Translations under genes and position numbers: made by a program | Notes under the pieces: generated by a model | Seen by the model: the letters and a program-made list of their open reading frames with translations, nothing else | The model's database searches: none | Told to the model about the DNA's origin: nothing | Assembly (NCBI RefSeq): GCF_003334785.1 | Contig: NZ_QOWV01000051.1 | From: Escherichia coli | Lineage (GTDB): Bacteria; Pseudomonadota; Gammaproteobacteria; Enterobacterales; Enterobacteriaceae | Direction: 5' to 3' (one strand) | Length of the DNA stretch: 3,334 nt | Shown here: positions 1 through 3,334 of the stretch, piece after piece | How the letters are laid out: each line of letters starts with the position of its first letter | How positions within the stretch are numbered: position 1 is the stretch's first letter

Positions 1-60
1 TGTCCGAAAATGTGTCTCATGGGCACCGTATGCGCCCAAACCGATCGCCATTCACTTTCA

Positions 61-74
61 TGCATAGCTATGCA
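61..74. promoter_or_regulatory. Perfect 14-bp palindrome TGCATAGCTATGCA, candidate ARG-box-like accessory-factor site of the cer-like region
   Basis: Seen in sequence: perfect palindrome about 105 bp upstream of the putative XerC arm. Position and partial match to the degenerate ArgR box pattern are consistent with ColE1 cer architecture (established knowledge), but the match is loose. Duplicated at 3318..3331 because of the circular overlap. Confidence 0.3.
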
Positions 75-174
75 GTGAGCTGAAAGCGATCCTGACGCAT
101 TTTTCCGGTTTTCGCTTGGTAAAACATCTCTTTTTGCGGTGTTCGCGGCAGAATCGCGTTCAGCGCGTTTTAGC

Positions 175-203
175 GGTGCGCGTAATGCGACGTTATGGTA
201 AAT
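175..203 (+). other. cer-like XerC/XerD site-specific recombination core (plasmid multimer resolution site)
   Basis: Seen in sequence: GGTGCGCGTAA-TGCGACG-TTATGGTAAAT. Right arm is identical to the ColE1 cer XerD arm as I recall it; left arm is one mismatch from the dif XerC arm GGTGCGCATAA. Central region is 7 bp (cer has 8, dif/psi 6). Accessory sequence would extend upstream across the wrap point. Confidence 0.5.
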
Positions 204-351
204 GCTGTGATTTACGGGATGGTTTTATCTATGTTGATATCAATACCACCTCTTATGGAGGTGGCTTACACCGATTTTTCCTTGTTGTCTGTTTCAGAAC
301 AGATAGAGGCTTTTTTGGCAATTATCCAACCACTATTGATAGTGTTTATTA

Positions 352-504
352 CTACTTAGATAACTGAGCCTTTACTGTATCTGCCCCTGCAAGCAGGAAC
401 CCAACAGTTAAGAACCACCCCCAGCCATTGATACCTTTTAGCGCTAGAATTGCTGCGCAAATGATGGCTGCTATAGGGACTATCTGGTACAGAAAATACT
501 TCAT
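352..504 (-). CDS. Hypothetical small hydrophobic protein (50 aa), possible membrane peptide
   Basis: Hand-translated ORF absent from the supplied track: ATG at 504..502 (- strand), stop TAG at 354..352. Product MKYFLYQIVPIAAIICAAILALKGINGWGWFLTVGFLLAGADTVKAQLSK has two hydrophobic segments. Weak SD-like GGGGT 7 nt upstream of the ATG; possible promoter GTGACA(561..556)-17-TCTCAT(538..533). Contains rare ATA and CTA codons. No recognisable family. Confidence 0.3.
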   Translation of the reverse strand: MKYFLYQIVPIAAIICAAILALKGINGWGWFLTVGFLLAGADTVKAQLSK

Positions 505-582
505 ATAACTTACCCCGAGGTTTTGCTTTTTTATGAGACCCTAAAGCATCGATACTGTCACTTTGATGCTTTAAGGACCTTC

Positions 583-864
583 TTAGTGATAATCCTCGAG
601 ATCCACGTCAAAGACGTTAGGTTCTTCGAGCTTAAACACTACGCGCCAGTTTCCATTGACCTCTAACGAATACTCTCCTTGACGGTCTCCCTTCAATGGA
701 TGGCAGCGCAATGCCTTTAAATCCATCATATCCTGCAAGTTCGTCGCTGTGCTTAAGGCTGTTAGGATCAGCTTCAGACGTTGAGTAAACTGTTGCGGAA
801 TTCCTGCGTTGTTACCTGTTTCGGCAAACTTACGCAAACCTTTATGCTTGATATTTATGATCAT
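583..864 (-). CDS. higB: HigB-family toxin (plasmid maintenance system killer protein, RelE/ParE superfamily mRNA interferase)
   Basis: 93-aa ORF from the track. Motifs IKHKGL..F...G....GIP, HPLKGDR.G..S..VNGNWR and C-terminal DVD.EDYH match my recollection of the HigB/killer-protein family. ATG at 864..862 with GGTG SD-like sequence 4 nt upstream; stop TAA at 585..583. Confidence 0.85.
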   Translation of the reverse strand: MIINIKHKGLRKFAETGNNAGIPQQFTQRLKLILTALSTATNLQDMMDLKALRCHPLKGDRQGEYSLEVNGNWRVVFKLEEPNVFDVDLEDYH

Positions 865-1001
865 TAATCACCATCCCATATTTGTTTAGATAGAAACATC
901 GCAGTTTATTTTTCCGGTTCATCCGTATTTCCATTGCAAACCCCTTGCTCTATTTGAATAAATGACGTAGGTTTTACTTAACCAAGTCGCATTTTAATCT
1001 G

Positions 1002-1029
1002 TTGACATTGGTTTGATGCGCTGTACAAT
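1002..1029 (+). promoter_or_regulatory. Near-consensus sigma70 promoter, rightward, presumably driving higA with a roughly 170-nt leader
   Basis: Seen in sequence: -35 TTGACA (1002..1007), 16-bp spacer, -10 TACAAT (1024..1029). Predicted start near 1036. Confidence 0.5.
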
Positions 1030-1094
1030 GCCGGGGCCTTGAATTTCACATCAAGTACCCACATCATAAGGAATGATTAGACGCACCAATGTGC

Positions 1095-1123
1095 ATCATA
1101 ATGTCATTCTTTTTTTTAGTCAA
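1095..1123 (-). promoter_or_regulatory. Near-consensus sigma70 promoter, leftward, candidate higB promoter with a roughly 220-nt leader
   Basis: Seen in sequence on the - strand: -35 TTGACT (1123..1118), 17-bp spacer, -10 TATGAT (1100..1095). Predicted start near 1087. No better promoter was found closer to the higB start codon. Confidence 0.45.
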
Positions 1124-1208
1124 CAATGAGTTGCGTTATGCGCAATGCGCAATCTGAAAACGCAATAGGCCTATCTTTTTAAAACTAATATAGGCTTCAG
1201 AGGAAGGT

Positions 1209-1505
1209 ATGATTAATCTTGTCGATCCAGTACATCCAGGGGTTTTTATCCGTGAGATGTTTATGGAACCGTTTGAAATATCAGCCGCGGACCTGTCTGA
1301 AAAACTGCATGTATCACCTTCCACTCTAAGTAGAGTGCTGAATGGAAAAGCTGATTTAAGTGTTGAGATGGCATTAAGGCTTTCTCGAGTTCTTGGTCGC
1401 AGTGCCGAGTCGTGGATAAACATGCAGACTCAATACAGTCTTAACGCGAGCAGGAAGTCACCTAATGTCATTAAGGAATTAGATGAATTGGTTCCTATAT
1501 TTTGA
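1209..1505 (+). CDS. higA: HigA-family antitoxin (XRE-type helix-turn-helix addiction module antidote protein)
   Basis: 98-aa ORF from the track. N-terminal VHPG..IRE.F.EP...S...L...L.VS...LSR.LNGK..LS.EMALRLS...G.S.ESW.N.Q..Y.L matches the HigA-family HTH pattern as I recall it. ATG at 1209 with GAGGAAGG SD immediately upstream; stop TGA 1503..1505 followed by a terminator hairpin. Confidence 0.85.
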   Translation: MINLVDPVHPGVFIREMFMEPFEISAADLSEKLHVSPSTLSRVLNGKADLSVEMALRLSRVLGRSAESWINMQTQYSLNASRKSPNVIKELDELVPIF

Positions 1506-1512
1506 GAAAAGA

Positions 1513-1537
1513 AAAGGCCGCTATATGCGGCCTTTTT
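1513..1537. terminator. Rho-independent terminator hairpin downstream of higA, flanked by A-run and T-run (bidirectional)
   Basis: Seen in sequence: stem AAGGCCGC (1513..1520) / GCGGCCTT (1527..1534), loop CTATAT, then TTT; preceded by GAAAAGAAA. Confidence 0.55.
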
Positions 1538-1542
1538 CTGTC

Positions 1543-1571
1543 TTGACTCTCAGGCAACTGGATCGTATCGT
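1543..1571 (+). promoter_or_regulatory. RNAII (preprimer) promoter of the ColE1-type replicon
   Basis: -35 TTGACT (1543..1548), 17-bp spacer, -10 TATCGT (1566..1571); start near 1578..1580. Placement matches the ColE1/p15A arrangement, where RNAII begins just outside the RNAI terminator. Confidence 0.55.
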
Positions 1572-1579
1572 TTCTCGTA

Positions 1580-1683
1580 AACGAAAAAACCACCCGGCAA
1601 GGTGGTTTTTTCGAAGGTTCAGTAACCGGCAAGTTTCTGAACCAGGGTAACTGGCTTGGAGGAGCGCAGTCACCAAAACTTGT
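1580..1683 (-). ncRNA. RNAI: RNAI antisense copy-control RNA of a ColE1/p15A-type replicon
   Basis: - strand reads ACAAGTTTTGGTGACTGCGCTCCTCCAAGCCAGTTACC...AAAAAACCACCTTGCCGGGTGGTTTTTTCGTTT, closely resembling p15A RNAI as remembered, ending in a terminator hairpin plus U-run. Ends are approximate to within a few nt. Confidence 0.7.
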
Positions 1684-1690
1684 TCTTTCA

Positions 1691-1719
1691 GTTTAGCCTT
1701 AACTGGCGCATAACTTCAA
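1691..1719 (-). promoter_or_regulatory. RNAI promoter
   Basis: - strand: -35 TTGAAG (1719..1714), 17-bp spacer, -10 CTAAAC (1696..1691), start at A (1683). Same layout as the pBR322/p15A RNAI promoter as recalled. Confidence 0.5.
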
Positions 1720-2084
1720 GACTAACTCCTCTAAATCAGTTACCAGTGGCTGCTGCCAATGGTGTTTTGCATGTCTTTCCGGGTTGGACTCAAGATGATA
1801 GTTACCGGATAAGGCGCAGCGGTCGGGCTGAACGGGGGGTTCGTGCACACAGCCCAGCTTGGAGCGAACGACCTACACTGAACCGAGATACCTACAGCGT
1901 GAGCTATGAGAAAGCGCCACGCTTCCCGAAGGGAGAAAGGCGGACAGGTATCCGGTAAGCGGCAGGGTCGGAACAGGAGAGCGCACGAGGGAGCCACCAG
2001 GGGGAAACGTCTGGTATCTTTAAGTCCTGTCGGGTTTCGCCACCTCTGACTTGAGCGTCGATTTCTGTGATGCTCGTCAGGGGG

Positions 2085-2110
2085 GCGGAGCCTATGGAAA
2101 AACGCCTGCG
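2085..2110 (+). other. Origin of replication (RNAII to DNA transition region), approximate
   Basis: GCCTATGGAAAAACGCCTGCGGCGCGG aligns with the pBR322 origin segment GCCTATGGAAAAACGCCAGCAACGCGG, where leading-strand synthesis begins. The exact switch nucleotide cannot be fixed from sequence. Confidence 0.5.
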
Positions 2111-2176
2111 GCGCGGCCTTCTTCCTGTTCTTGGTCTTTTGCTCACATGTTCTTTCCGGCCTTATCCCCTGATTCT

Positions 2177-2185
2177 GTGGATAAC
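2177..2185 (-). promoter_or_regulatory. DnaA box (TTATCCACA on the - strand) downstream of the origin
   Basis: + strand TGTGGATAA at 2177..2185 within CTGATTCTGTGGATAACCG, the same context as the DnaA box next to the pBR322 origin. Confidence 0.5.
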
Positions 2186-2289
2186 CGTGCTGCCGTTTTT
2201 GTGTAAGTCAGTACCGCTCGCCGCAGCCGAACGACCGAGCGTAGCGAGTCAGTGAGCGAGGAAGCGGAAAAGCGCCTGGACGCGCATTT

Positions 2290-2440
2290 TCTCCTTACGC
2301 ATCTGTGCGGAATTTCACACCCGGCATGGGGCACTTTTCATACAATCTGCACTGATGCCGCATAGTTAAGCCAGTATACACTCCGCTATCGCTACGTGAC
2401 TGGGTCAGGGCTTCGCCCCGACACCCGCTGACGCGCCCTG
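2290..2440. other. bom/oriT-like region (basis of mobility) homologous to the pBR322/ColE1 nic region; no mob genes present
   Basis: GATGCCGCATAGTTAAGCCAGTATACACTCCGCTATCGCTACGTGACTGGGTCA and flanks are near-identical to the pBR322 segment between ori and rop that carries bom/nic, as I remember it. Boundaries and exact nick position are uncertain. Confidence 0.45.
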
Positions 2441-2501
2441 GCGGGCTTGTCTGCTGCCGAAAACGCTCGCGGACAAGCCGTGAGCGCCTCCGTCAGCTTC
2501 G

Positions 2502-2696
2502 TTATGTTCCTGTTTCACTTTCGGTCTCAAAGCGAACCTGGATGCTGTTCTGGAGTTCTTCCGCGAGTTCGTGCAGTCGTTCGCACATGGCCGCCTGTTC
2601 GTCGGCATCCAGAGCATCCAGTTTTTCAAGCAGTGTCAGGCTCTGGCTTTTGATAAATCGCGCCATATTCAGCGCAGTTTGTTGCTGTTTGTTCAC
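2502..2696 (-). CDS. rop: Rop/Rom (RNA one modulator) copy-number control protein
   Basis: 64-aa ORF from the track. MNKQQQTALNMARFIKSQSLTLLEKLDALDADEQAAMCERLHELAEEL aligns with pBR322 Rop (MTKQEKTALNMARFIRSQTLTLLEKLNELDADEQADICESLHDHADEL). Start is GTG at 2696..2694, as in pBR322 rop. Convergent with RNAII, as in pBR322. Confidence 0.85.
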   Translation of the reverse strand: MNKQQQTALNMARFIKSQSLTLLEKLDALDADEQAAMCERLHELAEELQNSIQVRFETESETGT

Positions 2697-3053
2697 CTTC
2701 CGTTGTTCTCCGTCAGTACCGGGTGTCGGGTGGACCCTGACCAGGTGGTAATTGTAAGACGTTGCGGGCGACGGTATTACAATTGCACATCCTGTCCTGT
2801 TTTTTTAGGACGTATCATGGCACAGCATATCAACTGATAAATAATCCCTGTGCAGTGCAGCCGCTGTTGCATAAAATTTCGCTCTGCGTCGAGTGTTTCT
2901 TAATCAATAATTCCGCTGATACTCCGGAAAAACGCGAGTCTGTTCTCATGCCTGAAATGCCCACACCCCACGCAAAAACAATTTTTTGCTGATTTTTCTT
3001 TATAAATAGAGAGTTATGACAAATTAGTTCTTCTTGCTCTCTTTGTGATATTT

Positions 3054-3102
3054 AAAAAAGCGGTGTCGGCGCGGTGTTGTAGCTGCGCCAACACCGCTTT
3101 TT
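3054..3102. terminator. Long GC-rich hairpin flanked by A6 and T5: candidate bidirectional intrinsic terminator
   Basis: Seen in sequence: AAAAAAGCGGTGT (3054..3066) pairs with ACACCGCTTTTT (3091..3102); inner GGCGC (3068..3072) pairs with GCGCC (3085..3089). Could insulate the cer-like site from incoming transcription (inference). Confidence 0.5.
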
Positions 3103-3257
3103 AGGGGTGGTACTGACTATTTTCATAAAAAACATCATTTTATATTAGGGGTGCTGCTAGCGGCGCGGTGTGTTTTTTTACAGGACGCCCCTGGGGGCGC
3201 TGCTAGGGGTGTCTGTTCAGATATGTAGCAATGAGTCAGGGATTCACGAACTGAAAA

Positions 3258-3334
3258 TGTCCGAAAATGTGTCTCATGGGCACCGTATGCGCCCAAACCG
3301 ATCGCCATTCACTTTCATGCATAGCTATGCAGTG
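3258..3334. repeat. Terminal redundancy: exact 77-bp copy of positions 1..77, indicating a circular molecule of about 3257 bp
   Basis: Checked base by base: 3258..3334 equals 1..77. The window ends at 3334, so the match may simply be truncated there. Confidence 0.9.

Follow-up and report, generated by a model that had tools for sequence, protein, structure and literature searches.

Does a repeat found at both ends of a contig belong to the DNA molecule, or to the way in which its sequence was assembled? The question is raised by the stretch of DNA studied here (the window, 3334 bases in all), in which positions 1–77 are identical to positions 3258–3334 (77/77 bases), with a start-to-start spacing of 3257. 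This exact repeat had been noted in a preliminary description, which read the window as a circularly permuted complete plasmid with a unit of about 3257 bp. The repeat was confirmed and its reading supported, the latter by closed public circles of 3257 bp in which the 77-mer occurs once and its flanks are contiguous. We conclude with high confidence that the window represents a complete circular plasmid as a contig of a draft assembly. The plasmid has a true length of 3257 bp and is a ColE1-type replicon lacking mob genes and carrying three transfer origins.

Origin of the terminal overlap

Apart from the overlap, no exact direct repeat in the 3257-bp unit, taken as a circle, is longer than 12 bp, and a chance origin of the 77-bp identity is thereby excluded. 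End overlaps that are longer than every repeat in a genome have been used as a criterion of circularity (PMC8172020), and the overlap in the window is longer than any internal repeat (77 vs 12 bp). An end identity of 77 bp has previously been put down to SPAdes (PMC9409062). Two closed records of the plasmid, L001 and L002, which show 2 and 1 substitutions, respectively, relative to the window, each contain one copy of the 77-mer, with the left flank, the 77-mer and the right flank contiguous; the single-copy junction is therefore a direct observation. Further draft contigs of the plasmid were reached by looking up truncated toxin products. Two NCBI draft assemblies represent it as 3384-bp contigs with exact terminal overlaps of 127 bp (unit 3257 bp), and a metagenome scaffold of 3317 bp ends in an exact overlap of 55 bp (unit 3262 bp). 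The breakpoints of all three contigs differ from that of the window. Overlap lengths of 55, 77 and 127 bp at differing breakpoints indicate that the overlap tracks the assembler k-mer rather than any biological feature, and that its position is arbitrary. The value of 77 is a default largest k for 150-base reads. Presumably, a de Bruijn-graph assembler working with k = 77 would have travelled once round the circle and emitted the last 77 bases twice.

A genuine repeat would also be seen if the window had been cut from a larger molecule, such as a head-to-tail multimer or a cointegrate, instead of representing a monomer circle. Multimers do form among ColE1-type plasmids, and a head-to-tail multimer would give an identical window. 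Moreover, in one record (L004) a transposon-bearing derivative takes the form of a head-to-tail dimer, where the 77-mer occurs at positions 7395 and 17320 of 19849 bp, and the backbone is also found inside 13.9-kb resistance plasmids. However, a contig that exceeds one unit by exactly 77 bases fits an assembler k-mer and not a random cut, and the 127-bp and 55-bp overlaps in other contigs of the same plasmid likewise argue against a larger source molecule, which we consider very improbable. Even in a multimer the repeating unit would still be 3257 bp, and the practical conclusion would be the same. The idea that part of the cer accessory arm is truly duplicated locally, within a plasmid of 3334 bp, has nothing in its favor except the presence of the repeat, and is hardly credible: the two copies are not adjacent but sit at the very ends of the window, with 3257 bp between their starts, no closed circle of 3334 bp occurs among the public records of the plasmid, and while L001 and L002 have one 77-mer, the other closed records, at 3255–3258 bp, leave no room for a second.

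Under the assembly explanation, the first copy of the overlap (1–77) is real plasmid sequence inside the cer accessory arm, identical to 3258–3334 and single in L001 and L002, and the second copy (3258–3334) is redundant and should be trimmed, leaving a unit of 1–3257. The overlap had been placed within the cer accessory region, and the position of the ARG box (59–76) inside 1–77 agrees with this. It had also been cautioned that features near the boundary appear twice and should be counted once. This advice was sound, as the ARG-box-like palindrome occurs at both 61–74 and 3318–3331 solely through the overlap. For bookkeeping purposes, the ARG box and the duplicated part of the cer arm count once, and open reading frames (ORFs) that cross the window end, for example 3135–3308 on the minus strand, are candidates for artefacts.

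Known copies, hosts and derivatives

The plasmid is a well-known cryptic ColE1-type replicon of E. coli and Salmonella, and the overlap itself is ordinary and already known. In PLSDB, megablast found 37 records in which at least 80% of the unit is covered; among the full-length matches listed, most were closed circles of 3255–3258 bp, with 99.6–100% identity. Hosts of the closed copies include E. coli, E. fergusonii, Salmonella enterica and Shigella, and among complete E. coli genomes 25 of 5426 carry the plasmid (at least 80% of the unit). The same plasmid is present as closed 3257-bp records in E. coli EC6 (NZ_CP182404.1), E. coli RHB08-SO-C08 (unnamed2, CP099257.1) and E. fergusonii (pRHB32-C09_4, NZ_CP057241.1), all with 100% coverage, 0–2 SNPs and the same gene content as the window. 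These records are circular and are classed by MOB-suite as 'mobilizable', in rep_cluster_2350, without a relaxase; they differ from the window in lacking the 77-bp terminal duplication and in having other start positions.

In addition to being a common cryptic hitch-hiker, the plasmid serves as a backbone for Tn3-family structures with blaTEM-1 and tet(A) in Salmonella Hadar, where 13.9-kb resistance plasmids consist of this backbone plus such a structure carrying both genes. Tn3-family insertions were found in CP082640.1 (L003) and NZ_CP022068.1 (L004), with blaTEM-1 in both and tet(A) in the former. The insertion point corresponds to unit positions 223–227, with a TTTTA target duplication, and is 20 bp from the XerD half-site. 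The 19.8-kb record NZ_CP022068.1 contains, as deposited, two head-to-tail copies of a 9.9-kb derivative. Another record, NZ_CP069465.1 (L010), is a linear 'plasmid' of 1763 bp that contains only the higA/higB part, and is evidently an assembly fragment.

Replication region

The preliminary description listed an origin, rop, bom, a cer-like site and toxin-antitoxin genes, and all of these are present in the unit. The functions of replication, resolution, killing and mobilisation that we assign below are predicted on the basis of homology and of what experiments have shown for sister plasmids. ColE1 (NC_001371) aligns to 1579–2696 with 86% identity over 983 columns, a span that includes the RNAII region, the origin, bom and rop. 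The antisense copy-number regulator RNAI is encoded at 1581–1681 on the minus strand, opposite the 5' end of RNAII, and gave a full-length match to Rfam RF00106 (91.3 bits vs a gathering score of 47), with the three-stem-loop fold. The RNAII primer region and origin occupy 1579–2140 on the plus strand within the ColE1 homology; the origin is placed near 2134 from the 555-nt length of RNAII in ColE1, and a promoter-like site is located at 1543–1571, upstream of the RNAII start. The rop (rom) gene, whose product modulates RNAI-RNAII pairing, lies at 2502–2696 on the minus strand and encodes a protein with 64% amino acid identity to ColE1 Rop (E=9e-27); Pfam PF01815 was matched by the same gene in two related records (L017 and L019).

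No ORF of the unit matched a Rep family. ColE1-type replication requires no plasmid protein, and for this reason a PGAP annotation of a 'replication initiation protein' within the RNAII/origin region (approximately 1900–2100), which appears in RefSeq copies of the plasmid (e.g. H31–H45) and in ColE1, looks spurious. Past the end of higA and ahead of the RNAII promoter there is a terminator-like hairpin (1512–1536, inverted repeat I4), which may serve to keep higA transcription from reaching into replication control. An Rfam match to Trp_leader at 1508–1601 on the minus strand (25.8 bits vs a gathering score of 41) was rejected, and corresponds to the higA terminator hairpin together with the 3' stem of RNAI.

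Taken as a whole, the plasmid resembles ColE1 in its replicon cluster, its RNAI fold, its Rop protein, its origin/bom/rop sequence and the architecture of its cer core, including the spacing to the ARG box. Unlike the window, ColE1 carries mbe/mob, colicin, immunity and lysis genes, and has a cer central region of 8 bp; the window has neither mob nor colicin genes, a 7-bp cer central region, and two additional oriTs.

A cer-type site for multimer resolution

A cer-type Xer multimer-resolution site, consisting of an accessory arm and a core, extends over 26–204 on the plus strand. A block of approximately these coordinates is common to hundreds of other plasmids, small and F-type plasmids among them, and ends at the XerD half-site. 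The start of the accessory arm may lie some tens of bases further back, across the junction. Xer sites have been described as two 11-bp half-sites flanking a central region of 6–8 bp (PMC11724359), and the core at 175–203 on the plus strand has this architecture, with the XerC half-site GGTGCGCGTAA (175–185), the 7-bp central region TGCGACG (186–192) and the XerD half-site TTATGGTAAAT (193–203). By BLAST, the core aligned to ColE1 cer and the accessory arm gave no alignment to ColE1; the arm was compared with ColE1 by hand, by anatomy and spacing, and with other plasmids. In cer-type sites an arm of approximately 180–200 bp lies on the XerC side and includes an ArgR box at a set distance. Within the arm of the window, a palindrome at 59–76, with the 14-bp core TGCATAGCTATGCA at 61–74 (inverted repeat I3), resembles the ARG-box consensus, and its second copy at 3316–3333 arises from the overlap only. 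The distance from the center of this palindrome to the XerC half-site is 107.5 bp, compared to 106.5 bp for the ColE1 box, TTGCATAGGTATTCA. This anatomy suggests that multimers of the plasmid would be resolved by XerCD with ArgR and PepA at the cer-type site.

Transfer origins and mobilisation

The absence of mob genes, claimed previously, was upheld: the unit contains no ORF longer than 100 aa and no match to a relaxase, and MOB-suite lists none in the closed records. ColE1 is typed MOBP by MOB-suite, and the closed copies of this plasmid are without a relaxase. Of the ColE1 mobilisation system, the bom/oriT nick region is present and the mbeA-D/mobA-D genes are absent. The ColE1-type bom/oriT (2290–2425, minus strand) matches the oriT region of ColE1 almost perfectly, and includes, at 2358–2378, the reverse complement of TATACTGGCTTAACTATGCGG, an exact match to the nick-region motif of ColE1/pBR322. 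Position 2358, the outermost base of this nick-region motif, is C in the window and T in L001 and L002.

The stretch from rop to cer (2697–3257) has no annotated gene, and at least 5000 plasmid records, most of them conjugative, matched it by blastn. Two further transfer origins are predicted here. An oriT of the IncI1/R64 type, at 2717–2805 on the plus strand, consists of an imperfect inverted repeat and the nick-region core TTACAATTGCACATCCTGTCC (2777–2797). The segment has 81.5% identity to the sequence directly upstream of nikA in the IncI plasmid pSTM7, and it is this alignment that gives the R64-type label. The 21-bp core is identical to that of the IncI plasmid, and the left repeat arm is imperfect.

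An F-type oriT that reaches from the nick to the TraM-binding sites was found at 2963–3211 on the minus strand, with 89.6% identity to F 66157–66405. In IncF plasmids, including F itself, the sequence corresponding to 2961–3211 maps between an SLT-transglycosylase gene and traM. The minus strand reads TTTGCGTGGGGTGT|GGGCATTT where F has TTTGCGTGGGGTGT|GGTGCTTT, and the nick is predicted, from its position in F, to fall between 2963 and 2962. The 14 bases 5' of the predicted nick are identical to those of F, and the homology continues through the region of the TraY, IHF and TraM sites. When 2906–2976 is compared with F (L015, 1100–1175), similarity collapses directly beyond the predicted nick, with indels and loss of the inverted repeat of F. 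A homology boundary at nic could reflect how the F-type segment was acquired. The inverted repeat of the sbmC region (3055–3102, inverted repeat I1) is retained, and the loop between its arms is inverted relative to F: positions 3073–3084 read GGTGTTGTAGCT in the window, vs the reverse complement of GGCTACAACAACGC of F. This is consistent with a comparison of pSe-Kan and F, in which the sbmC-region inverted repeat was the least conserved spot (PMC9282650).

The two origins together form a module that was found, at a coverage of at least 80%, in 282 PLSDB records. A similar arrangement has been described for pEC156 (AF158026), in which an R64-like oriT of 93 bp and an F-like oriT of 274 bp lie beside rom and cer (PMC4743918). 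That plasmid was mobilised by F' and by R64drd11, each of its two sites proved functional, and mobilisation was lost when both sites were deleted (PMC4743918). The oriT sites of pEC156 are shared by pKPN2, pSe-Kan and pColG (PMC4743918), and pKPN2, with similar sites, was reported to be mobilised by F but not by R64 (PMC4743918). The tra genes of F mobilised pSe-Kan with no mob operon present (PMC9282650); IncI1 plasmids also mobilised it, whereas those of the IncX and IncP groups did not. Like the window, all four are ColE1-type plasmids that lack mob genes and have one oriT of the F type and one of the R64 type in the interval from rom to cer, and the common order is RNAI/RNAII, rom, the R64-type oriT (~90 bp), the F-type oriT (~250–270 bp) and cer. 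Their F-type oriTs are approximately 87–90% identical to that of F; the likeness of our sites to those of this group was deduced by way of F and an IncI plasmid. The cargo differs, being a restriction-modification system or a kanamycin-resistance transposon in the pEC156 group, and the higB-like gene, higA and an ORF of 50 aa in the window.

By sequence, the plasmid thus possesses three transfer origins: the ColE1 bom and one oriT each of the R64 and F types. The preliminary description had proposed that a replicon of this kind depends on helper plasmids for mobilisation. The dependence itself stands, given the lack of mob genes, but two of the oriTs had been missed, and one conjugative plasmid of the IncF or IncI1 type should be enough as helper, because the F-type and R64-type oriTs are present, as shown for pEC156. 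Likely routes are those of relaxase-in-trans mobilisation, in which the relaxase and the mating apparatus would both be borrowed from co-resident IncF or IncI1 plasmids. The bom would offer a third route, for which a ColE1-type Mob donor and a conjugative plasmid would be needed. The possession of three transfer origins fits the spread of a plasmid without any mob gene over E. coli, E. fergusonii, Salmonella and Shigella.

Divergent higB-like and higA genes

The toxin-antitoxin locus named in the preliminary description holds genes of the HigB and HigA families, which do not form a canonical higBA operon. A gene at 583–864 on the minus strand encodes a HigB-like toxin of the RelE/ParE fold (93 aa; Pfam PF05015, E=6e-15; WP_000586174.1 in identical records), and a gene at 1209–1505 on the plus strand encodes a HigA-family antitoxin with a helix-turn-helix (HTH) domain (98 aa; TIGR02607, 96.3 bits vs a cut-off of 47.7; WP_000609270.1). 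The two genes are on opposite strands and 344 bp apart, rather than in the adjacent, toxin-first and co-transcribed layout. In canonical higBA loci, such as that of Rts1 and the tandem relatives, higB is followed by higA on one strand, at a distance of 11–14 bp or with an overlap, whereas the protein families, a PF05015 toxin and a TIGR02607 antitoxin, are common to both layouts.

The divergent layout also occurs in 10 related lineages (loci L006, L007, L011, L012 and L022–L027), with gaps of 305–391 bp, and was found in all examined relatives with at least 65% toxin identity. These include plasmids of Klebsiella, Raoultella, Enterobacter and Erwinia, as well as six contigs that were found through toxin relatives, some of which are annotated to Cronobacter and Yersinia. 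The tandem layout is seen in relatives with 44–54% toxin identity, which come from Legionella, Acinetobacter and a metagenome contig. The HigB-like and HigA proteins diverge in parallel, as expected for a cognate pair, and together they are predicted to act in toxin-antitoxin killing and plasmid stabilisation.

A candidate structured RNA unit between higB and higA

The gap between the divergent genes contains the only item on this plasmid that might be new, and the only one with research value. A strong sigma-70-type promoter at 1002–1029 on the plus strand (TTGACA-16-TACAAT) is kept in 11 of 11 lineages, with the consensus TTGACN-16/17-TAnnAT and a spacer that is not conserved. Approximately 80–84 nt downstream of it, all 11 lineages have a hairpin, a T-run and then GTCAA, although the T-run is weak and set apart from GTCAA in one of them. 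In the window, this corresponds to a candidate structured transcript or leader of approximately 83 nt (1035–1118, plus strand), with a 5' hairpin, an inner hairpin bearing a CCA-containing loop, and a long stem followed by a U-run, in the form of an intrinsic terminator. A second promoter-like site (1095–1123, minus strand; TTGACT-17-TATGAT) faces the first and points toward higB, and its spacer is formed by the 3' arm of the hairpin. The TTGAC of this site (GTCAA on the plus strand) and its TAnnAT, 17 nt apart, are conserved even though the stem varies. Adjacent to the element, an operator-like repeat, TTGCN-N5-NGCAA-TGCNCAA, at 1131–1153 comprises invariant alignment columns and is a candidate HigA binding site. 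A search by eye for a separate higA promoter in 1118–1208 found none that was convincing.

The sequence of the long stem differs between lineages. After realignment with a covariance model, a procedure that leans toward the given structure, 13 of 19 pairs had changed on both sides, a number reached by 0 of 500 shuffles, and 76.6% of cells were paired, vs 34–48% in slid controls. The realignment was needed, as RNAalifold alone missed the long stem owing to register shifts. The covariance model matched all 11 loci with the divergent layout, and found no match in tandem higBA loci, in ColE1 or in F. No Rfam family matched the element at 1035–1118; a match to TarB (19 bits vs 80) was rejected.

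These results suggest a scheme in which the promoter at 1002–1029 would give rise to a structured, terminated transcript of approximately 83 nt (1035–1118). This transcript may attenuate higA as its leader, or may instead act as an antisense RNA over approximately 50 nt at the 5' end of the higB message. The higB message would start from the facing promoter (1123–1095), embedded in the terminator stem, and HigA would bind the adjoining repeat at 1131–1153. A conceptual precedent exists in an antisense RNA that acts on the type II system mazEF (PMC8749433). We tentatively propose, rating the idea somewhat short of an even chance, that a cis-encoded RNA not described before controls the clade of divergent higB/higA loci on Enterobacterales plasmids. 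If this is true, a layer of RNA control has been added to a type II toxin-antitoxin pair.

Small open reading frames

The ORFs at 116–367 and 2762–2992 on the plus strand and at 3135–3308 on the minus strand were rejected as spurious, as they match no family and overlap cer or the oriTs. A hydrophobic ORF of 50 aa (352–504, minus strand) lies downstream of higB; the closed records that we read do not annotate it, and it had no match in Pfam, NCBIfam or PADLOC. Relatives with approximately 60% amino acid identity are present in other Col plasmids, and in L022, the toxin of which is 90% identical, the ORF keeps its position after higB. The two copies differ by 16 synonymous vs 9 nonsynonymous codon changes, which points to apparent purifying selection, and the ORF probably encodes a real small membrane protein.
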